This document shows, piece after piece, positions 4,968-37,712 of a stretch of DNA of 37,993 bases. The notes under the pieces were generated by a model. It worked only from the letters and a program-made list of their open reading frames with translations, was not told where the DNA came from and ran no database searches. Position 1 is the first letter of the stretch, and every line of letters begins with the position of its first letter. The position numbers and the translations under genes were made by a program. The DNA comes from Verrucomicrobia bacterium UBA1731 (lineage in GTDB: Bacteria; Verrucomicrobiota; Kiritimatiellia; RFP12; UBA1067): contig DCIH01000004.1 of the NCBI GenBank assembly GCA_002317575.1, positions 21,171-59,163 of the forward strand. The letters run 5' to 3'.

Positions 4968-6017
4968 TCACGCCGCGGTCACGGCGCTCACGCGGAGGGT
5001 GCGGGTTTCGCTCTTTTTGTAGAGCGATTCGGGCACTTTCCCCTTTCCCCCGAAGTGTGTCTCGACGGCCTTGGAGTCGAGGCGGTTGGTCACGCTCGTC
5101 TTGAAGGTCGCCTTCCAGCCGTCTGCGGTTCCGAGTTCTGCGGAACCGAGCGCGACCTTGATGCGGTTTTCGATCTCTGCGACGCGCTCCTTTGCGGCGT
5201 CCTCTGCCTCCTTTGCGGCGGCGAGCGCCGCGAATTCGTCGGCGGCGAGACGGACTGGTTCCGCGTCGGGGTTCGACGCGCCGACCGTCGCCTTGACGGC
5301 TTCGGTGTCCGCCTTCGACCCGGTCGGGTCGGGGAGGACGCCCGTCGCTTCGGCGACCGCGAGCTTGTCGAAGAATTCCTTTGCCGCTGGCTCCATCTCG
5401 GCGATTTCGGCGGTCGGGACGTGGATGACGTCGTCCACCCATTCCGGCTTGTTCTCCGCGTCGCCTTCGACCGTGGTGACGAGGTATACCGAAAGTCCGA
5501 CCATCGGGACGTAGATAGCGAGGTACCAGCGCCTGCTTTCCGTCACCGCGATGTAGAGGCAACATTGCACGAGGTAGGTCGTCGGGAAAGGCAGGGGGTG
5601 CTTGCCGAGGAGGTGGTCGCGCCCGTTGCGGATCGCGGCCAGCTCTTTCATCGTCTTGCACTCGAGTCCGGCGTCTTCGTTTGCGATCTTGCGGTCGATG
5701 CTGGCCATGAGGTGCGGGTAGTCGTCGTTTGTGATCACGCAGTTCTCGCGGTGGACTTTTTTTCCCGACCGTTCCTCGAACCGCTTTGCGACGTATTCCT
5801 CGTTGTCCCGCCCGAACCGCATCGCCTCGTTGTCGGCCTTGTCCGGCAAGAGGCCCATCCGCCGGAGGCAGAGCGTGCGCGGCGTCTCGTATTTCGAGAA
5901 GCCCATCACCGCACCCAGTTCGCTCCCGCCGAGGCGGGTTTTTCCAAGTTCCGTCCGGGTGGCGAGCCACGCTTCGCGGCTCCCCACGTCGAAACGGTGC
6001 TTTTTCATCGTGCCCAT
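4968..6017 (-). CDS. YqaJ/lambda-Exo-like PD-(D/E)xK recombination exonuclease
   Basis: RLGGSELGAVMGFSKYETP N-terminal motif; FGRDNEEYVAKRFE; ASIDRKI...AGLECKT (D...ExK). ATG 6017 behind AAAAAAGGAGAACGCGAA. Confidence 0.8.
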   Translation of the reverse strand: MGTMKKHRFDVGSREAWLATRTELGKTRLGGSELGAVMGFSKYETPRTLCLRRMGLLPDKADNEAMRFGRDNEEYVAKRFEERSGKKVHRENCVITNDDYPHLMASIDRKIANEDAGLECKTMKELAAIRNGRDHLLGKHPLPFPTTYLVQCCLYIAVTESRRWYLAIYVPMVGLSVYLVTTVEGDAENKPEWVDDVIHVPTAEIAEMEPAAKEFFDKLAVAEATGVLPDPTGSKADTEAVKATVGASNPDAEPVRLAADEFAALAAAKEAEDAAKERVAEIENRIKVALGSAELGTADGWKATFKTSVTNRLDSKAVETHFGGKGKVPESLYKKSETRTLRVSAVTAA

Positions 6018-6050
6018 TTCGCGTTCTCCTTTTTTGTTTTTCCGTGTTAC

Positions 6051-6079
6051 AATATCCTAAAATCAGCGCATGAAGTCAA
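6051..6079 (-). promoter_or_regulatory. sigma70-like promoter candidate for the exo-annealase operon
   Basis: On the minus strand: TTGACT (6079..6074), 17-nt spacer, GATATT (6056..6051). Lies in the 68-bp gap between 6086 and 6017. Confidence 0.35.
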
Positions 6080-6085
6080 GAGGAA

Positions 6086-6481
6086 CTATTCGTTTTTCCA
6101 CTCGGGCGGAACTTCTCTCCGCGCGAGGCGCGCGTTGAGCGCGTCGTTTCGCTCTATCGACTTTTTGAAAAACGCGCCTCCGCGCCTCTTGGCCGCGTTC
6201 CGGCTGTAGACCGCCGCCGCCACCTGCAGATCCGTCTTCGCGGCTTCCTCGGCGTGTAGCGGGTCTGTTTCGACGTACTCTCGCGCTCCGCTCATGCAGG
6301 CGCGTGCGATGGACGTCATCTCGGCGGCGATCAAATGGCAGACGTCCTTGGCGTGGTAGAAGAGTTGCTCGTCCCGCGAGTCTATTGCCTGCCCCCGAAT
6401 CGTGAGCCACGCTCCGCGCAATGCATTCAAACGCACGAGCTTCTCGGACCTGCTTTCCTTCTGCTCCGAGTATCCGCTCAC
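6086..6481 (-). CDS. hypothetical protein (131 aa, GTG start)
   Basis: Only the last 131 codons of track ORF 6086..7432 are protein-like (VSGYSEQKESRSEKLVRLNALRGAWLTIRGQ...). GTG at 6481 overlaps the TGA of 6478..6855 (GTGA). GAGGAAGG lies upstream. Confidence 0.5.
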   Translation of the reverse strand: MSGYSEQKESRSEKLVRLNALRGAWLTIRGQAIDSRDEQLFYHAKDVCHLIAAEMTSIARACMSGAREYVETDPLHAEEAAKTDLQVAAAVYSRNAAKRRGGAFFKKSIERNDALNARLARREVPPEWKNE

Positions 6482-6855
6482 AGCGCCGCCGCCTTCCTCG
6501 AAACAGTCACGTCGAAGTTCGGGAGCATCTGCTGGACGAGGTTGCGCACGTGGTCTTCCTTCGGGAGAGGGTGCGCCTGCGCCCGGAAGAAGCGCCGCGT
6601 CGCCGAGTCTCCGATGCGCAGTTTGCGGAGATGGTGCTCGACGATTGGAAGGAGTACGCGTTCGACCACGTCTGCTTCGCTCTTGCCGCACCCCTTGAGG
6701 AGGTCGCCGTATTCCTCTCGCAGGCCGATGAGCGCCGTGTGCCAGCGTCCGCGCGTGGCGCACGTCATCCTCATGTTGAAACGCGCAGGGCGCGTCACAG
6801 ACCCGTTGTTTGTAGGGGCTTCCTCGTTTGTGTAGACGTGTTTGCACTTTCCCAT
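6478..6855 (-). CDS. hypothetical protein (125 aa)
   Basis: ATG 6855 behind ACAAGGGAGAACGCAA. Balanced composition. Confidence 0.6.
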   Translation of the reverse strand: MGKCKHVYTNEEAPTNNGSVTRPARFNMRMTCATRGRWHTALIGLREEYGDLLKGCGKSEADVVERVLLPIVEHHLRKLRIGDSATRRFFRAQAHPLPKEDHVRNLVQQMLPNFDVTVSRKAAAL

Positions 6856-6891
6856 TTGCGTTCTCCCTTGTTTCGTCGGTTGTCGTTTCCG

Positions 6892-7617
6892 TCAAAGGTC
6901 GCCGAATCTGTGAGCGCCGATTGTGCGCACCCGGCGGAGCTTCTTCGCCCAGCGCGGGTAGCACTTCGCGTGCGCGTAGTAATGGTTCGCCTTCAGGGTC
7001 GGGCGGAATTCTTCGCGCGCCACCCGCTCGGCGACGGACACGCAATGACGCCATTTCGCCCCTGCGTGCTTCTCTCCGATCCTTGGCCGCGCGTTGTTCC
7101 AGCACGAAAACTGCCGCTTGCGCAGGCATTCGGTAGCCGCGTCCGTGCCGCGTTCGCGCGCCCGGTTGACGATCACCGACGCCACAGCTTCGATCCCGGC
7201 CAAGCTCTCGCCTCGCGCTTCGCGCCACAGCGTTTGGCTCACCACCGCGACCGTCCAAGGATCGGCGCTGGTTGCGCACTTCGTCGGCCCCTTGCATTCG
7301 TCCGGCTTCGGAGCATCCGTCTCCGCTTCCGTCTTCGACGGGCCGATCCCTTGGAGAATCCGGCGCGTTTCCGCTTCCTCGGCTTCGTATTCCGCCTTCG
7401 CCTCGGCGTTCCTGTCTTCCGCAGTCGGCCAAGATTTCGTCGGCTTGTCTTCTGCTTCTCTCCGCATCGCGTCGATCTCGCGTTCAGCCGCGTCGGCCCG
7501 AAGCTTCATCTCGAGGTTGACGAGGACGAGCGCCGCGATGGCCGCGAAAACACCTGCGACGGCGGCGTTGACCGTCCAGTCTGTCATGCGTTCGCGCTTC
7601 TTTTCCTTTGCCGTCAT
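6892..7617 (-). CDS. SleB/Hydrolase_2-type cell-wall hydrolase with N-terminal Ala/Gly-rich membrane anchor (candidate SAR endolysin)
   Basis: LWREARGESLAGIEAVASVIVNRA...RQFSCWN is the SleB-family signature. The N-terminus has VNAAVAGVFAAIAALVLV followed by a charged linker. ATG 7617 follows AAAAGGAGAACCGAC; the track start at 7644 would include that SD. Confidence 0.7.
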   Translation of the reverse strand: MTAKEKKRERMTDWTVNAAVAGVFAAIAALVLVNLEMKLRADAAEREIDAMRREAEDKPTKSWPTAEDRNAEAKAEYEAEEAETRRILQGIGPSKTEAETDAPKPDECKGPTKCATSADPWTVAVVSQTLWREARGESLAGIEAVASVIVNRARERGTDAATECLRKRQFSCWNNARPRIGEKHAGAKWRHCVSVAERVAREEFRPTLKANHYYAHAKCYPRWAKKLRRVRTIGAHRFGDL

Positions 7618-7640
7618 GTCGGTTCTCCTTTTTGCGTTGT

Positions 7641-7808
7641 TCACTTCGTTTCGCCGTTGGCGCGCTCGCCGTCTTCGATGAGCTTTGCGATCTGCCCCCG
7701 GATGGATCGGTGCTCGCGCTTCGCGTTTTCCGCGATGCGCTTGTGTTGCGCCTTGTCCAGCGTCACGTGGACGAGGACGGTATTCGCTTCTTTCGTGTTT
7801 CCCTTCAT
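7641..7808 (-). CDS. ribbon-helix-helix (CopG/Arc-like) protein, 55 aa, not in ORF track
   Basis: Hand translation: MKGNTKEANTVLVHVTLDKAQHKRIAENAKREHRSIRGQIAKLIEDGERANGETK. It shows a beta-strand/helix/helix pattern. The ATG overlaps the TGA of 7805..8095 (ATGA). SD is ACAAGGAGAACAAACG. Confidence 0.6.
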   Translation of the reverse strand: MKGNTKEANTVLVHVTLDKAQHKRIAENAKREHRSIRGQIAKLIEDGERANGETK

Positions 7809-8095
7809 CGTTTGTTCTCCTTGTTCGTTTCGTTTTCGAGCGCCTCGATGGACGCTTCCGTCACGCCTATGTTCCGGCTTCCCGATCCGCGCACCCCGAC
7901 GAGCCGTCCTGCGCGCACCAAATTCACGACCGTGTTGCGGTGGCGACCGAGCCGACGTGCCGCGTCGCCGATGGAAACCACCGACGAGCGCCTTCCGCCG
8001 ACCAGCGCGCGCTCGATGCGCTCGAGTTCCGCGTCCGTCGCCGTCGGGTCTGCGTGCGCAATCCGCACGATCATCTCTTTCGTCATTTCCTGCAT
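7805..8095 (-). CDS. helix-turn-helix DNA-binding protein (Xis/MerR-type HTH)
   Basis: VSIGDAARRLGRHRNTVVNLVRAGRL is a typical excisionase-type HTH. ATG 8095 behind GGAGAAGAGAAA. Confidence 0.6.
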   Translation of the reverse strand: MQEMTKEMIVRIAHADPTATDAELERIERALVGGRRSSVVSIGDAARRLGRHRNTVVNLVRAGRLVGVRGSGSRNIGVTEASIEALENETNKENKR

Positions 8096-16402: not shown

Positions 16403-19051
<2,649 letters not shown>

Positions 19052-31360: not shown

Positions 31361-31400
31361 GTTGCGTTCTCCTTTTTTAGGTTGTCGGTCTTTGTTTCGG

Positions 31401-32130: not shown

Positions 32131-32412
32131 ATGGAAAACGTTGAACCTGTCGATTATTCGTCCGTCGAAGAACTTGACGCGAAGCTGAACGAGCTTGGCG
32201 CGTGCCGATTCCAGTTGCAGGACGGGACGTCATACGGCGTCGAGCGCCGCGAGGACGGACTCGTTTGGGTCTACGAGGAAATCGAATCCGACGAATGGCG
32301 TGAAGAATCTTTCCCGTCTTTCGGTCAGGCCGTGTCGCTTTTCTTGGTCGGCGGGAAGTCCCTCATGGAGCTTTCGGGCGGCGTCGTGTTGCCGCCGTTC
32401 ACGATCCGCTGA
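32131..32412 (+). CDS. small acidic protein (93 aa), the only credible plus-strand gene; candidate immunity/moron gene
   Basis: ATG 32131 preceded by GTGGAGGTACTGACA (GGAGG, 9-nt spacing). Protein-like sequence MENVEPVDYSSVEELDAKLNELGACRFQLQDGTSYGVERREDGLVWVYEEIESDEWREESF.... Its 3' end overlaps the MuF-toxin gene tail to tail by 14 nt. Confidence 0.6.
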   Translation: MENVEPVDYSSVEELDAKLNELGACRFQLQDGTSYGVERREDGLVWVYEEIESDEWREESFPSFGQAVSLFLVGGKSLMELSGGVVLPPFTIR

Positions 32413-34879
32413 CGTCGCTTTCCGTCTCGGTTCCGTCCGACGCCGATTCCGCATCCGGGACTGCCGAGCAGGCGAGTCGTATGCGGTCGCTGAACTCTTG
32501 GTCATCCGTTCGAAGGAACAGGTTGAACACCTGCGCGACGCGTCCTTTCTTCGTCGCCCTGTCCCACGGCTCGTATGGTTCTTTCCCGTCTTGCGGATCG
32601 TAGAACACAGTCTTGCCGTTTTCCTGCCGGGCGCGGAATGCGTGAGCTCCGCCGTCCCGCCACGAGATGCCGATCTCGCAACGCGCGCCGTCGCCCCATT
32701 CGGCCATCTTGTCCACGATGTCCTGTCGGCTCTTCCACGGCATGGCCTTGTCCGGCTCCTTGTAAAGCGGGAACATATAGCGCTTCGTCCCGTACTTGAG
32801 CCCGCGCCATATCACGTCCGCGTTCTTCGCCGTTCCGTTCGGGTTGACCTCACAAGGCAACGCCTCGACCTTCCATCCGCGCGCACGCGCTTCGTCCGCG
32901 CCGACGCACCGCTGGCAGTTGCTGTGGAATCGGGCGCCTTGGTTCGGCTTGGAGTAGTTCGGGTTCGTCTTCTCCATCGGCAGATCCTCTTTCGAGTGCT
33001 TCGCGCCGATGACGGACATGGCCGTCGCCGTTTTCTTCTCGAGGTCTGTGACGGGCTTCCACGCCGACTTTGCGTCCGCCTTCGCGGCGAGCTCCCATTC
33101 CCGGATCGCCCGCGCGGCGGCGGCGGCGCTTTCTGCGACGGCCACGGCCCTGCGCTTCGACGATTCCGCGAGCTTGCGGCAGGCGTCCACGCTCCCGGTG
33201 TCGACGGACGTCTTGAAAATGACGCGGGAGAGCTTCGCGGACTTTTCGGCGGATTCGAGCCGCGCGACCGCCTCTTCGGCTACGGTGTCGTCCGCCGTCG
33301 CGCCTTCCCAGCGCGCTTTCGCCTCGTCGAGCAGTTTTCTCGCCTTCGCCGCCGGATCTGCGAACGCCGCTTTCAGCGCATCGTCCACTTCGTCGGCGAG
33401 ATCTGCGATTTCGTTGTCCGCGAACACTTCGATGGCGAGGCGGGAGTCCTTTTCCGCTTCGCCGAACGCGTCTGCCATCGCCTTGGCGTCTTCAGCTTCC
33501 TTTGCTGCGCGCCGCGCGACGCTTTCCGCCGCCATCACCATCAGCTTCATCTTGCCGTCGAACCGACCCTGCGCGTTTTCGTCTTGCGGGTTCTCGGCCT
33601 TGTCCACGGCCTGCGCGTAGCCGACGAGCCGCTCCGCCTCGCCGCGCACGGTTTTCGCGCCTTCGCGCAACGCCTCGAGCGCACCGCGCATCCGTCCGAG
33701 CGCCGCTTCGACTTCCGCGTCTTCTATCCCCTTCGCCAACGATTCCGCAGTCTTTGCGTCCGCTTCCGCCTTGCGCACCAGACCGTCCGCCGCTTCGGCG
33801 GAGGCGTCCACGGACGCTCTCGCCTCTCCTATCTTGGAGAGGGCTTCCGTCTTCGATGACAAGTCCGGCGCGAACGCGGCGGCTTCCGTCGGGATCGCGG
33901 TCGTTTCCTCCGGGGGCGTTTCAGCAGTTGGAGCTTCAGCCGACGCCCGCCCTTCGCTAGAAACCTCCGGCTCCGGCTGGAGTTTGTACGGCGTTTGCGT
34001 TCCCGGCTCGAAATCGCGGCGGTCGCCGTCGCCGTAGAGGCGCTTTTTGAGTTCGCGCAGTTTCGCCTTTTCCTCTTCCGTGTATTCGTCGCGGAGCATT
34101 TTCTTGCCGGACGCCTTTGCCTTCGCGGCCACCTCGCGCCCGAAATCCTCGAGGCCGTCGGGCTTCCCCTCCTGTTTGCACATGGCCTTCCACTCGCACC
34201 CGTCGACGTTCACCCACGCCATGCCGCTACCGAACGCGAACGGCGGGTACGGAGATCCGAGCGCGTCGTCGTATCCGCCGACGCCGTCGCCGACGGCCTG
34301 CCAAATCGGGGAGTTCTTTAGGGCGACCATGCGCCGCTTGAGAGCGCCAGCCCATCCGACGGATTCGCCCGCCGCCTTCCACCGTGCGGCCCAGTCGCCC
34401 CTCGGTTTTTTGCGAGCCCCGGTGCGCGTGAGCTTCCACGCCGGGAGGGCCATGAGGACGTCGGGGTCTTCCTCGCCAACGGCCATCTGCCCCATCGACC
34501 GCGCCTGCTTGACGTTGGTGTCGATGATGAGCTGGATGCGTCGTGAGGACGAGAGGTCTGTCGTAGATCCGGGCGTCGCGGGAGGAGTACGTCCGTCACC
34601 GAACCCGGTTTGCGGCGTGTATCCGAGCTGGTGGAGGACTCCTTGGAGCTTCGCCTCGGCCACGGACGGGATGACGCGTCGGCTCGCCACGTCAGCGAGC
34701 GTCCGCTTCACCATGTCGAGGTATGCGCGCGAAGTCGTCCGCGCGGAGAAGAGCGCCTGTTGCTTGATTCGCTCGTCCCATTCCGATCCGATGGCACGCG
34801 AGGACAGTTCCGTCGGCCTCGGCTGGAGCCGGACGAGACGCTTTTCGCTCGCGCTTTCGGGCTTTTGTGCCTGCGGCAT
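32399..34879 (-). CDS. MuF/SPP1-gp7-like minor head domain protein with long helical linker and C-terminal papain-fold toxin-like (Tox-PL1/glutamine-deamidase-like) domain (826 aa)
   Basis: N-terminal RIQLIIDTNVKQARSMGQ...WKLTRTGARKKPRGDW...SPYPPFAFGSGMAW resembles Phage_Mu_F. The C-terminal NPNYSKPN...HSNC655QRC...WRDGGAH746AF...VFYD761PQDG gives a Cys/His/Asp order typical of papain-fold toxin domains. GGGAGGGGAAAGGGA SD. Confidence 0.55.
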   Translation of the reverse strand: MPQAQKPESASEKRLVRLQPRPTELSSRAIGSEWDERIKQQALFSARTTSRAYLDMVKRTLADVASRRVIPSVAEAKLQGVLHQLGYTPQTGFGDGRTPPATPGSTTDLSSSRRIQLIIDTNVKQARSMGQMAVGEEDPDVLMALPAWKLTRTGARKKPRGDWAARWKAAGESVGWAGALKRRMVALKNSPIWQAVGDGVGGYDDALGSPYPPFAFGSGMAWVNVDGCEWKAMCKQEGKPDGLEDFGREVAAKAKASGKKMLRDEYTEEEKAKLRELKKRLYGDGDRRDFEPGTQTPYKLQPEPEVSSEGRASAEAPTAETPPEETTAIPTEAAAFAPDLSSKTEALSKIGEARASVDASAEAADGLVRKAEADAKTAESLAKGIEDAEVEAALGRMRGALEALREGAKTVRGEAERLVGYAQAVDKAENPQDENAQGRFDGKMKLMVMAAESVARRAAKEAEDAKAMADAFGEAEKDSRLAIEVFADNEIADLADEVDDALKAAFADPAAKARKLLDEAKARWEGATADDTVAEEAVARLESAEKSAKLSRVIFKTSVDTGSVDACRKLAESSKRRAVAVAESAAAAARAIREWELAAKADAKSAWKPVTDLEKKTATAMSVIGAKHSKEDLPMEKTNPNYSKPNQGARFHSNCQRCVGADEARARGWKVEALPCEVNPNGTAKNADVIWRGLKYGTKRYMFPLYKEPDKAMPWKSRQDIVDKMAEWGDGARCEIGISWRDGGAHAFRARQENGKTVFYDPQDGKEPYEPWDRATKKGRVAQVFNLFLRTDDQEFSDRIRLACSAVPDAESASDGTETESDVSGS

Positions 34880-34913: not shown

Positions 34914-35348
34914 TCATATTTTTTCGTTGAGGAGTTTCTTTCGCGGCTCGCCGAATTCCGGCCCCGCGAGGTGGCTTTCGTCTTCCGACTCGTCGAAACT
35001 TTCGGGCGTCACCTCGCCGTTGGCCACCGCCTTGAACAGATCGAGCGCCTGCTGTCGCGCGTCCTTTCGCGGTTCCTTGATCTCGACGGGCATACGCTTC
35101 AGCACGTCGAAGGCGGCGTAGTCCATCGCCGGGGATATGAGCGATTCGGGGATGTCGTAGCTCGCCGCCGACATCCGCACCTGTTTGTTTTTTCGGACGT
35201 ACCCGCGCACCATCGCCGCCGTGCGCTTGAGGAGGTCTTCGACCGGGTCTGCCCCCGACGCGAAGTCGGGAGACGTCCTGTACGCCTCCAGCTCCTTTTG
35301 GGAGAGCGTGGCGGCGATGTCCTGCAGTGTCGGGGTTCTCCATGCCAT
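34914..35348 (-). CDS. Mu gp36/DUF1320-like head-completion protein (144 aa)
   Basis: The pattern T..DI...LS..EL.........DPVEDLL.RTAAMVRGYV.......IPESLISPAMDYAAFDVLKR....E.R...RQQALDLFKAVANGE resembles DUF1320. AAAGGAG SD. Confidence 0.5.
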   Translation of the reverse strand: MAWRTPTLQDIAATLSQKELEAYRTSPDFASGADPVEDLLKRTAAMVRGYVRKNKQVRMSAASYDIPESLISPAMDYAAFDVLKRMPVEIKEPRKDARQQALDLFKAVANGEVTPESFDESEDESHLAGPEFGEPRKKLLNEKI

Positions 35349-35349
35349 G

Positions 35350-35817
35350 TCAGTTAGCTCCTTTGTTCGCGGAGGCCGTCGCCCCCGTCCGTTGCATCAC
35401 GTCGATCTTGTCCTCGAGGGCCTTGACGCGTTGGCGCTGTTGCACCAGCTCTTCCATGACCGCCGGGGGGACGCGCCAATGGTCGACCTTTCCCTCGGCG
35501 TTCGTCACGGCGTAAACCCAGCGATCCGCCGAAACGACCACCGCCTGCGGCTTCGCGCTCGAACAGCCGACCGCCCAGCAGGCGGACGCCGCAAAAATCC
35601 CGGCGACGCATCCACGTAGCATGGCGTTCACCTTCTGCTCGTCTCCGCCCCACACGGCGGCGTTCAGTTCCTCGTACGCCGCCTCTTTCGATTCCCTCGC
35701 TTTGGCCACGTCTCCCTCAGCATCCCTTGTTTCGTTGTTTTTCGTAGATTTCCACTTGAAAAACGCGCCTATGGCGTTTCCAACGCCGCCGATCATGGTT
35801 GTAATTCCGTCGATCAT
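35350..35817 (-). CDS. membrane protein (155 aa) with nested in-frame lipoprotein-type start at 35622
   Basis: ATG 35817 behind GGGAGG; the track start at 35865 is TTG. N-terminal hydrophobic MIDGITTMIGGVGNAIGAFF. The internal ATG 35622 has its own GAAGGTGAAC SD and reads MLRGCVAGIFAASACWAVG-C (lipobox-like). Confidence 0.55.
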   Translation of the reverse strand: MIDGITTMIGGVGNAIGAFFKWKSTKNNETRDAEGDVAKARESKEAAYEELNAAVWGGDEQKVNAMLRGCVAGIFAASACWAVGCSSAKPQAVVVSADRWVYAVTNAEGKVDHWRVPPAVMEELVQQRQRVKALEDKIDVMQRTGATASANKGAN

Positions 35818-36120
35818 CCAAAACCTCCCGCAGTCGCCGATCAAGTCAAAAAGAAAGACGGACAAAACCGCAATGCCCGAAAAACGCGAAAATCCGCCCC
35901 GTCACGCTTCGCGCGTGAACCCGCGCGCACGTTTTTCCGTGAAACGCTCCGCGCGCACACAGGGCCGTTTTTGACCCGTTTCAGCAAATCGAGTCGTTTT
36001 CCCGTCCCAGTTATCCGCGAAAACGCCGAAATGACCGCCGCCGCGAGCCGTCTTTCCGTGGCCCCTGCGCCACGATCTGTCTTTGTGGTCGCTCATGTCA
36101 TCGCCGTGGCGGTAAAATCC

Positions 36121-36157
36121 GGGGGCCTCCATGCGCATGGCGCGCGCGGAGGCCCCC
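36121..36157 (-). terminator. strong hairpin, likely intrinsic terminator closing the GGCT unit
   Basis: GGGGGCCTCC, a 17-nt loop, then GGAGGCCCCC (perfect 10-bp stem). The minus-sense flank is GGAUUUUACC and the plus-sense flank is UUAUGUUUCC. It lies 120 nt after the stop at 36277. Confidence 0.5.
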
Positions 36158-36276
36158 TTATGTTTCCGTGAGCGCTCCACCGCCGGAAACCTCGCGGGGT
36201 TGGAAGCGCCTTGCCGTCGGGCGGCGGAACGGACGCTCTTCGCGGCCTTCCGCCCGTCTTCAAGGCGTGGCGCAAA

Positions 36277-36726
36277 TCAGCGGACGCCTTTTGCGCGCCT
36301 CTCTTGCGACGCCCTGTATGCTCGCCAGTCGGCGACTGGCTTTCCGTCGCACTTCCGTCGCGCTGGCTCGATCATCCGCGCGTTCGGGTTGTTCCGGTCT
36401 TTTTGGAGCACGTACACAAGCGCCTGCGTTTTCGTCCCGTCTTCGAACTCGACCTCCGTCTGCGTCCGACCGTAGAGTCGCGGGTAGCCCTCGAGGACGT
36501 CCATGCGCGCCAATCCGTCGTCATCCGTCTCGAGGACTTCGCAGGCGACCATCGGAGCCGAAGAGCAACGGGTCGGCTTCGCGTTCGGGAATCCATACCC
36601 CGTGTCCCAAAGTTCCCCGTGGAACGTTCCGGGCGTCCGTTTCGCGTTTCCGGCCCACCTCTCGTTTCGCTCCCCAGCCATCAGCGTCCCGTAGACGGCA
36701 ACCAATCTCGTTTTTCCGTTTTCCAT
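36277..36726 (-). CDS. gamma-glutamylcyclotransferase-fold (AIG2/GGACT-like) protein (149 aa)
   Basis: LVAVYGTLMAGERN...GELWDTGYGFP...VACEVLE...MDVLEGYPRLYGR...ALVYV matches the GGACT/AIG2 motif order. SD AAAAAGGAGAACTGCG. Confidence 0.7.
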   Translation of the reverse strand: MENGKTRLVAVYGTLMAGERNERWAGNAKRTPGTFHGELWDTGYGFPNAKPTRCSSAPMVACEVLETDDDGLARMDVLEGYPRLYGRTQTEVEFEDGTKTQALVYVLQKDRNNPNARMIEPARRKCDGKPVADWRAYRASQERRAKGVR

Positions 36727-36759
36727 CGCAGTTCTCCTTTTTCCGTTTCCAATAAACCT

Positions 36760-37446
36760 TCATCCAGCCGCCGCGAAGGCGTCAGGAAGTCCGTGCGCTC
36801 GCGCTCCCGCCGAGCAGATCGCCCGGTAATCGTCCGGGTACTTCTTGCCGCGCCGAGAGGCCCGAGCCGCGTCCGTCATGACGTAGGCCATCGCCTTGAC
36901 CTCGATGCCGCTGTCGAGGAGCGTCACGTCGACCCATGCGTCGGCGTATGTCGTCGGCCACCCTTCAAATCTGTCGAGCGCCGCCACCGCGTCTTCCGTC
37001 AAACGCCAAACCATCCCGTACGCCTTCGCGCCGCGCCTGCGTCTCATGTCTGCGTACAGACGCTCTTCGACCGTCCACCCGTCCGCCACTCCCCTGCCGA
37101 CCGGGCGCGCGTCGGCTCCGACCCGACCGAGAAGGCGCGCGTCGTCGAGGTTCGACCCGTATGCGAAATAGAGGTATTCCGTTTCCATTTTACCGTTCTC
37201 ATTCGGCGAGACCGTCTCGCATCCTCTGTCAAGCGACCCGTCAGTCTCGCATTTCCACTTGCGCCCGTCCGGCGTCACTACCGTGATCGGACTGTGCGCT
37301 TCGTATTGCGTCGTGTAGTCGACCGTTCCGCCTGTTGCGCGCGCAACCGCATTCGCGGCATCCTCTCGCGTGATGTTTTCGTATTCGAGTTCGACGCCGA
37401 ATGTGATCGTCGCCAATTCTTCCATCGTGACCGCTTTGTTGTTCAT
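36760..37446 (-). CDS. fusion: N-terminal amidoligase (Amidoligase_2/GS-like) fragment plus C-terminal GGCT-fold domain (228 aa)
   Basis: N-terminal TFGVELEYE...W.CETDGSL..GCETVSP matches the start of amidoligases, but the rest of that fold is absent. C-terminal YLYFAYGSNLDDARL...AYGMVWRL...LDRFEGWPTTY...AMAYV matches the GGCT/AIG2_2 pattern. SD AAAAAAAGGAGAACGGACG. Confidence 0.6.
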   Translation of the reverse strand: MNNKAVTMEELATITFGVELEYENITREDAANAVARATGGTVDYTTQYEAHSPITVVTPDGRKWKCETDGSLDRGCETVSPNENGKMETEYLYFAYGSNLDDARLLGRVGADARPVGRGVADGWTVEERLYADMRRRRGAKAYGMVWRLTEDAVAALDRFEGWPTTYADAWVDVTLLDSGIEVKAMAYVMTDAARASRRGKKYPDDYRAICSAGARAHGLPDAFAAAG

Positions 37447-37509
37447 CGTCCGTTCTCCTTTTTTTGGTTTGCGTCCCGACGGGCTTCCACCCCCGTCGTT
37501 ACGCCCATG

Positions 37510-37537
37510 AACATACCACGTTCAAAAACGAAAGCAA
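37510..37537 (-). promoter_or_regulatory. extended -10 promoter candidate for the amidoligase-GGCT unit
   Basis: On the minus strand: TTGCTT (37537..37532), 16 nt, then TGGTATGTT (-10 at 37515..37510). A 6-bp-stem hairpin GACGGG-cttccacc-CCCGTC lies at about 37478-37497 in the leader. Confidence 0.3.
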
Positions 37538-37712
37538 GCGGTATTTTGAATTTTTTTCACTTTTTTTCGTGGCCTTTGAGCGCCTGCAATTCATCATCTT
37601 CCGCCTTGTCCATCGTGCTTCCGAAACCGAAACCTTCACGCGCGCGCGCGTGCGCGCGCATGGTTCGGCGTGTACCCACTTCCCTTTGTCTTTCTTTCTA
37701 TTTGTCTTTTAT

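Follow-up and report, generated by a model that had tools for sequence, protein, structure and literature searches.

Gamma-glutamylcyclotransferase (GGCT) cyclizes gamma-glutamyl-alpha-amino acids, and gamma-glutamylamine cyclotransferase (GGACT) cyclizes gamma-glutamyl-amines such as epsilon-(gamma-Glu)-Lys; in both reactions, the alpha-amino group of the glutamyl moiety, which must be free, attacks the gamma-amide, and 5-oxoproline is released. Glutamine-synthetase-like ligases form gamma-glutamyl amides at the expense of ATP. Phage systems combining an amidoligase with GGCT were reportedly predicted by Iyer et al. in 2009, according to papers that describe that work. Two reports place a cassette of amidoligase, GGCT and amidotransferase in podoviruses of the phiEco32, LUZ24, PaP3 and RIO-1 kind (PMC5498523, PMC3890496), and related cassettes are labeled variously as peptidoglycan-modifying, superinfection-blocking or nitrogen-metabolism auxiliary genes. 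No experimental function for such cassettes is reported in the literature searched. Here, we analyze a two-gene locus, genes A and B, within a 37,993-nt stretch of phage DNA (hereafter the window; contig DCIH01000004.1, positions 21,171 to 59,163 of the forward strand) from assembly GCA_002317575.1 of Verrucomicrobia bacterium UBA1731. We consider it likely that this locus is a degenerate copy of a three-gene phage cassette, and that the amidoligase-like stub at the start of gene A is the leftover of a ligase gene destroyed by an in-frame deletion.

The two minus-strand open reading frames (ORFs) lie exactly at the coordinates given in the preliminary description of this DNA. Gene A (37446..36760, 228 amino acids (aa)) encodes an N-terminal fragment of an Amidoligase_2 protein fused in frame to a complete GGCT/AIG2_2-type cyclotransferase, and gene B (36726..36277, 149 aa) encodes a GGACT-type (gamma-glutamylamine cyclotransferase-like) protein. 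In Pfam, gene A matched GGACT PF06094 at residues 93-195 (2e-11, 45 bits against a cutoff of 22.8), AIG2_2 PF13772 at residues 143-224 (2.9e-8, 34.5 bits against a cutoff of 27) and Amidoligase_2 PF12224 at residues 14-77 only (1.3e-7, 32.2 bits against a cutoff of 22), the last match covering positions 3-62 of the 245 in the profile. Gene B matched PF06094 at residues 9-115 (6.2e-19, 69.2 bits, same cutoff), so that all three families proposed beforehand for comparison were matched. PHROGs assigned phrog_2520 to A (3e-14) and to B, and phrog_2443, annotated as amidoligase, to the stub of A. The reading of the locus as two tandem GGCT-fold genes is therefore borne out, far beyond chance, by ORF coordinates, Pfam and PHROGs, and the match to PF12224 above its cutoff equally confirms that the N-terminal piece of A is the start of an Amidoligase_2 enzyme. 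NCBIfam gave no informative matches, and the defence-system models of PADLOC-DB gave no meaningful match for A, B or P0016, a full-length ligase related to the stub.

The GGCT domain of A (36760..37188, minus strand) begins at M87 (ATG at 37188..37186), as judged from the starts of its homologues, AlphaFold2 (AF2) modeling and Foldseek. The substrate-binding motif YGS(N/L), expected near the N-terminus of the fold, occurs as YFAYGSNL at residues 93-100. In an alignment of residues 75-223 with human GGCT, E161 in LDRFEGW (codon 36966..36964) falls opposite E98, the position mutated to Q in entry 3cry. The predicted local distance difference test (pLDDT) score reached 96-98 over residues 90-228 of the AF2 model, and Foldseek superposed this domain on entry 2rbh with E = 7.6e-10, a template-modeling (TM) score of 0.66 normalized to the target and a root-mean-square deviation of 3.0. 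Of 38 positions with a conservation of 90% or more in 39 relatives, the domain retains 33, and its five changes are all conservative.

Gene B carries YGTLM at residues 12-16 and E79 within DVLEGYP (codon 36492..36490), a residue that aligns with E82 of human GGACT (3jub); all 16 invariant columns of the 42-sequence family alignment are present. The profile of the gene B family matched YkqA as well as YtfP and human GGACT (1e-9 to 6e-7 for the latter two), and a single-sequence phmmer search reached only E = 0.73, a distant likeness. The catalytic glutamate, whose absence from both proteins would have spoken against the assignment, is kept in each of them (E161 in A, E79 in B). By sequence, motifs and fold, the pair belongs to the GGCT and GGACT families. 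Judged by their sequences, neither cyclotransferase is damaged, and both probably still work as enzymes; from the homology, one would expect gamma-glutamyl-alpha-amino acids or peptides to be the substrates of protein A and gamma-glutamyl-amines those of protein B.

The Amidoligase_2 stub comprises residues 1-81 of A (37204..37446, minus strand) and ends in CETVSP; it was delimited by a hidden Markov model (HMM) of the ligase built here, by comparison with P0016 (301 aa) and by the AF2 model of P0016. It corresponds to positions 3-77 of the 297 in the HMM, is 62% identical to P0016 over 76 aa, and keeps all 12 of the family-invariant residues of its stretch, including the ExE motif. The remaining 27 of the 39 family-invariant alignment columns, all beyond the stub, are lost from A. 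In the P0016 model (pLDDT 90.9), which has a glutamine-synthetase-like core, the stub covers a short helix, strand 1 (TFGVELEYE, with the ExE motif), helix 1 and strands 2-4, that is, the first four strands and one helix of a larger sheet; the GLHIHVG (HxH) strand, the VEFR (ExR) strand and all C-terminal helices are missing. Because these elements, and with them the 27 invariant residues, are gone, the stub cannot be a ligase and is a remnant rather than a functional member of Amidoligase_2. In the AF2 model of the fusion, the stub has a pLDDT of 59-86, the linker falls below 50 at residues 84-87, and the predicted TM score (pTM) of 0.67 points to no defined packing between stub and GGCT domain. 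As the strands and helices predicted for the stub reflect the alignment of its full-length parents, they are no evidence of autonomous folding.

What the stub once belonged to can be read from related loci. HMMs were made for the ligase, GGCT and GGACT, and the surroundings of ligase homologues in IMG/VR, GTDB genome and look-up contigs were scanned with them, yielding 104 non-redundant loci with closely (44 loci) or moderately (60 loci) related ligases. This neighborhood analysis, which the preliminary description had called for, found intact ligase-GGCT(-GGACT) neighbors. The closest group comes mostly from metagenome-assembled genomes (MAGs) of gut Kiritimatiellia/Lentisphaeria and from uncultured viral contigs; a full-length ligase is present in 44/44 of its loci, a GGCT gene lies nearby in 39, and both GGCT and GGACT are found in 32, most loci that lack a partner gene ending at a contig edge. 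The next group, mostly Clostridia prophages, has a full-length ligase in 57 of 60 loci and an adjacent GGCT gene likewise in 57, GGACT being rare; this more distant two-gene version, ligase and GGCT without GGACT, is widespread in Clostridia prophages. Its three ligases that are not full length are explained by an assembly gap (L039), a contig end (L041) and an alignment to positions 6-248 of 297 (L042).

Full-length ligases in the related loci measure about 300 aa and adjoin the GGCT gene, and all 120 listed of the 303 ligase homologues found are 254-420 aa long. Compared with these 104 loci, the window alone has a ligase ORF that itself ends after position 77 of the profile. Of the 21 matches to gene A in a word-index search, none but the protein of the window itself unites PF12224 and GGCT, and phmmer against 1.84 billion representative proteins revealed no other protein joining stub and GGCT in the best 150 of 1,647 matches. 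Seven GGCT homologues with N-terminal extensions of 84-210 aa (P0268, P0269, P0288, P0290, P0328, P0331 and P0359) contain no amidoligase stub in them. Two candidates for a second disrupted ligase were rejected: the apparent frameshift of L039 at 6001-6260 is the assembly gap already mentioned (N in the sequence), and P0357 (130 aa), a fragment of a ligase whose tail is out of frame, has no GGCT attached to it. Scanning 32 ORFs of the window with PHROGs and/or Pfam turned up no full-length ligase and, besides the stub, nothing else resembling one, the window representing 38 kb of a 59-kb contig. As a separate observation, three GGCT homologues of 275-280 aa (P0006, P0008 and P0012) share a conserved C-terminal extension of about 140 aa that has no Pfam annotation.

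The gene order of the window is that of the intact cassette. On the contig that encodes P0016 (L001), a ligase of 301 aa is followed by a GGCT of 144 aa and a GGACT of 134 aa, colinear with the window, and the same ligase-GGCT-GGACT order occurs between terminase and portal in L006. In the window, the GGCT and GGACT genes are neighbors on one strand within or next to the head/packaging module, in an order that matches L001, L006 and L028. Synteny extends downstream of the pair, where orf144 (Mu Gp36-like) and orf826 are 51% and 60% identical to genes of L009/L062 that sit directly downstream of an intact ligase-GGCT pair. The two cyclotransferases are fused into a single polypeptide in L040, L042 and L075 (locus coordinates about 5858-7819) and in P0261, and since they are also paired in YkqA, GGCT and GGACT act in one pathway, the fusions providing 'Rosetta-stone' evidence of joint work. 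In the ancestral cassette, the ligase would write a gamma-glutamyl amide that the two cyclotransferases presumably remove or process. The closest ligase homologues (L062-L091, 50-64% identity) come almost all from gut or rumen Kiritimatiellia/Lentisphaeria MAGs, which, together with the 61% G+C of the window, suggests a host of the PVC group. In these comparisons, MAFFT alignments misplaced ligase N-termini onto the GGCT motif, as TFGVELEY and YFAYGSNL attract each other, and alignment A5 was used instead after local tests; clustering of neighboring genes proved too noisy, overlapping-frame ORFs in high-GC DNA merging the clusters.

The junction between stub and GGCT domain reads CETVSP, then NENGK, then M87-ETEYLYFAYGSNL, encoded by GTC TCG CCG / AAT GAG AAC GGT AAA / ATG GAA ACG GAA TAC CTC TAT TTC. 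Homologous GGCTs begin M-x(1-3)-YLYFAYGSNL, so that M87 corresponds to the ancestral GGCT start codon. Six bases upstream of it, AATGAGAAC (37203..37195) differs by one mismatch from AAGGAGAAC, the Shine-Dalgarno (SD) motif of this phage, and the five NENGK codons (37189..37203, minus strand) appear to come from the former intergenic spacer, as indicated by the sequence, motif statistics and the pLDDT of the linker. An SD remnant and an ancestral start codon at the junction, together with colinearity with the intact cassette, are the signature of a deletion and not of a designed domain fusion. The junction contains no N or ambiguity, the reading frame runs cleanly across it, and a stretch of 1.3-1.7 kb that includes it recurs at 100% nucleotide identity in L003-L005, which stem from three other assemblies (two of them Logan runs, the third a JGI metagenome); it is therefore not an assembly error.

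The simplest account of these observations is as follows. A deletion of about 0.66-0.7 kb would have removed the ligase from about residue 82 to its end together with most of the spacer, its endpoint falling at or just upstream of the GGCT SD and preserving the frame by chance. The GGCT would now be translated from the SD and start codon of the ligase as a 228-aa protein bearing the 81-residue remnant and five spacer-derived residues, the stub most likely riding along as a passenger at the N-terminus; in addition, initiation at M87 behind its weakened SD may yield a shorter, native GGCT. The 'writer' would thus be dead and only the 'erasers' left, acting on host-made gamma-glutamyl compounds or awaiting loss.

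Several results weigh against this explanation or fail to favor it. The stub shows a mean identity of 50.6% to the N-termini of intact ligases, a ratio of 1.14 to the GGCT identity, and intact orthologue pairs at equal GGCT divergence show 52.4 +/- 7.3%, a ratio of 1.13, so there is no excess divergence of the stub, although, with even the nearest relatives this remote, anything short of heavy decay would escape this comparison. The retention of every invariant residue of the stub agrees with this, and the sequence gives no sign of relaxed selection, a result that would fit a recent deletion and continued constraint equally. Moreover, the ancestral allele is reconstructed from relatives only 45-62% identical, which would place the endpoints of the deletion only approximately and not to the base. 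Searches for close relatives of the window phage recovered none: a blastn search of the region against INPHARED phages gave no match, and IMG/VR scans with P0016 and gene B found nothing; an IMG/VR scan with gene A and one metagenome scan recovered only relatives of at most 40% identity and no intermediate allele.

Among the alternatives, the one that survives best, though we regard it as unlikely, is that the whole cassette is decaying, the cyclotransferases having become useless with the loss of the ligase and being intact only because the deletion is very recent. The nearly constant linkage of GGCT and GGACT to an intact ligase in the closest group suggests functional dependence, the three independent GGCT-GGACT fusions (L040, L042 and L075) speak for one pathway, and a stub free of decay is what would be expected if all of this were recent. 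However, both A and B keep a start codon, a strong SD, the catalytic glutamate and nearly all conserved positions (33/38 and 16/16), and the in-frame junction has preserved translation of the GGCT. GGCT-family genes are, in addition, widespread in phages, with PHROG 2520 classed as moron/auxiliary metabolic gene, and the Clostridia group does without GGACT, which indicates that the parts are separable.

We likewise think it unlikely that loss of the ligase was adaptive, be it through the resulting erase-only state or through the stub. Under such a scenario, a write-and-erase gamma-glutamyl cycle would have given way to autonomous cyclotransferases acting on gamma-glutamyl amides of the host, possibly gamma-glutamylated amines, peptides or cell-wall-derived gamma-glutamyl peptides, and the retained ExE metal/glutamate-binding strand would help to recruit substrate or partners. 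If this were true, the window phage would represent a natural 'ligase-null' allele that reveals a ligase-independent role of phage GGCT-fold enzymes. The preliminary description had envisaged depletion of glutathione. Nothing specific speaks for this idea: A and B both lack the signature of the glutathione-specific ChaC type, and the probable hosts are anaerobic gut Kiritimatiellia/Lentisphaeria, which we infer to be poor in glutathione.

We hold it to be improbable that the 81-aa stub is a selected functional module, whether by binding substrate or metal, by serving as a decoy, or as a dominant-negative element acting on the GGCT domain or on glutamine-synthetase-like enzymes. Such a role would be in keeping with the in-frame fusion, with the complete set of invariant residues (12/12, ExE included) and a divergence no greater than that of intact orthologues, with the parental secondary structure kept in the AF2 model at pLDDT 59-86, and with an allele unchanged in several assemblies. 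Nevertheless, the fusion occurs in the window phage alone across the 104 loci, the 120 listed of 303 homologues and the best 150 of 1,647 phmmer matches, and the stub amounts to an incomplete beta-sheet without its packing helices. The modeled secondary structure is driven by the alignment of the full-length parents, the pTM of 0.67 means no defined contact with the GGCT domain, and identical copies are uninformative on selection. Both the SD remnant and the former GGCT start codon that mark the junction suggest an accident. The earlier suggestion of a substrate-binding or decoy domain is therefore not upheld, given an architecture singular to this phage, colinear with the intact cassette and marked by the SD remnant and M87. 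Finally, it is very improbable that the junction arose artificially during sequencing or assembly, for instance by chimeric joining or the collapse of reads: the apparent frameshift of L039 proves that such errors exist in these data, but the junction is unambiguous, cleanly in frame and identical over 1.3-1.7 kb in three other assemblies.

With an in-frame deletion of the ligase as the preferred explanation, we turn to the signals that surround the pair. The SD motif AAGGAGAAC precedes both gene A (37452..37460, minus strand) and gene B (36731..36739, minus strand), as identified by sequence reading and motif statistics. Nine copies of it are found in the window, all on the minus strand, as against an expectation of 0.37 (positions 158, 1885, 4927, 6023, 7622, 7814, 31366, 36731 and 37452). 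Apart from those before A and B, six copies precede starts in the 1-8 kb block, which holds ParB-like and RecE-like genes (replication/recombination), and one, at 31366, lies inside the structural block. This distribution suggests two classes of translation-initiation region in the window phage, and the 'early-type' SD attributed to the pair has a real basis, the motif being common to A, B and the 1-8 kb block.

Upstream of gene A, a weak sigma-70-like element, TTGCTT-16 nt-(TGG)TATGTT (37510..37537, minus strand), may serve as the promoter of the pair. The sequence reported earlier is indeed present; it agrees with the consensus at no more than 8 of 12 positions, and a consensus scan did not call it, so its standing as a promoter is weak and putative. 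Between this element and the SD lies a small 5'-leader hairpin of the type GACGGGG-GTGGAA-CCCCGTC (37478..37497, minus strand), and 5' of the pair an alternating-GC palindrome, CATGCGCGCGCACGCGCGCGCGCGTG, is followed by GAAGGTTTCGGTTTCGG (37637..37662, 26 nt, minus strand). The intergenic region upstream of A (266 nt; 276 nt as folded) has a fold z of -4.3, and the palindrome may end transcription of an upstream 88-aa gene and so insulate the pair.

On the other side, a terminator-like hairpin (36114..36157, minus strand) lies about 120 nt past the stop codon of B. Its perfect outer stem of 10 bp, formed by GGGGGCCTCC (36157..36148) and GGAGGCCCCC (36130..36121) and followed by GGATTTT (GGAUUUU in the transcript), is as first described, and RNAfold lengthens the stem to 11+4 bp. 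The untranslated stretch of about 115 nt between the B stop and this hairpin (36160-36276, minus strand) is strongly structured (181-nt fold z = -3.3). Rfam matched no family in the flanks, including the palindrome, the terminator-like hairpin and the 36160-36276 stretch. A moron-like, independent unit bracketed by GC-rich hairpins, as in the separate transcription unit proposed for the pair, is plausible.

Further observations concern the genes around the locus. Just past the terminator-like hairpin, a 171-aa ORF (35350-35865, minus strand) has a hydrophobic N-terminal stretch and a lipobox-like AVGCSS but no family match; its product may be a lysis or spanin-type protein. The adjoining orf144 (34914-35348, minus strand, 144 aa) matches phage Mu Gp36 (PF07030, 3.8e-6), and relatives carry Mu-type portal and protease genes, on which grounds the head module of the window phage is Mu-like. 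The 826-aa product of orf826 (32399-34879, minus strand), encoded two genes downstream of the pair, carries a C-terminal toxin domain of the papain-fold 'Gln_amidase' type (PF15644, residues 654-766, 1.9e-9). In L009 and L062, the first 225 aa of this protein are conserved beside the cassette, and in L075 a counterpart of its C-terminal portion is found immediately upstream of the ligase. The orf826 product may be an injected polyvalent or virion-associated effector. Elsewhere in the window, an 865-aa protein (16403-19000, minus strand) has strong collagen-like tail-fibre repeats (phrog_6320, 1.9e-73), no tRNAs were found, and most structural proteins have no PHROG match, so that this phage lineage is poorly described.

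As a decayed member of the type of ligase-cyclotransferase cassette predicted in 2009, the locus is of low novelty and opens no new question by itself. The comparison nevertheless delimits a three-gene cassette, composed of a glutamine-synthetase-like ligase and two different gamma-glutamyl cyclotransferases, that is near-universal in one phage/prophage group associated with gut Kiritimatiellia/Lentisphaeria. The window phage, as a natural ligase-deleted variant, offers a possible control for the chemistry of the cassette. More generally, when partial-domain fusions are met in phage genes, the neighborhoods of their homologues should be checked before a new function is proposed.

Among characterized proteins, human GGCT/C7orf24 (2pn7, 2rbh, 3cry) resembles the C-terminal 142 aa of A over the whole fold, with 24% identity, the YGSN(L) motif and the catalytic glutamate; protein A differs in its foreign 86-residue N-terminal extension, in being encoded by a phage and in being linked to a ligase in its relatives. 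Human GGACT/A2LD1 (3jub) and bacterial YtfP share the YGTL motif and the glutamate with B, the similarity being distant. YkqA of Bacillus subtilis (2qik), whose function is uncharacterized in the literature searched, unites both types, its N-terminal domain resembling the gene B family and its C-terminal domain the GGCT domain of A, but it is a single cellular polypeptide with a domain order opposite to that of the phage fusions.

On the ligase side, the best Foldseek matches of the P0016 model were YbdK/GCS2 (1r8g, 1tt4), glutamine synthetase, GmaS and Dop/PafA, with TM scores of 0.4-0.5 and 10-15% identity. YbdK, glutamine synthetase, GmaS and PafA/Dop all activate the gamma-carboxylate of glutamate with ATP and join it to an amine; of this fold, the window keeps the first 81 residues. 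In butirosin biosynthesis, the ligase BtrJ adds a gamma-glutamyl group to an amine, and the GGCT-fold enzyme BtrG later removes it by cyclization. This could serve as a model for the ancestral cassette, but the parallel would hold as an analogy only, as BtrJ is an ATP-grasp enzyme rather than a glutamine-synthetase-like one and belongs to a cellular secondary-metabolite pathway.

The nearest counterpart is the phiEco32/LUZ24-type cassette, which likewise brings Amidoligase_2 and AIG2/GGCT together on a phage and for which the making and removing of a gamma-glutamyl-type amide bond has been proposed. Neither an amidotransferase nor an ATP-grasp partner was found beside the pair, in the scanned ORFs of the window or in those related loci that have gene calls. 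Unlike that cassette, the relatives of the window have ligase, GGCT and GGACT only, placed in or beside the head/packaging module, and the window itself has lost the ligase. The link drawn at the outset to the amidoligase-GGCT phage systems of Iyer and Aravind is nonetheless apt, as the same families are shared and are encoded together on phage.

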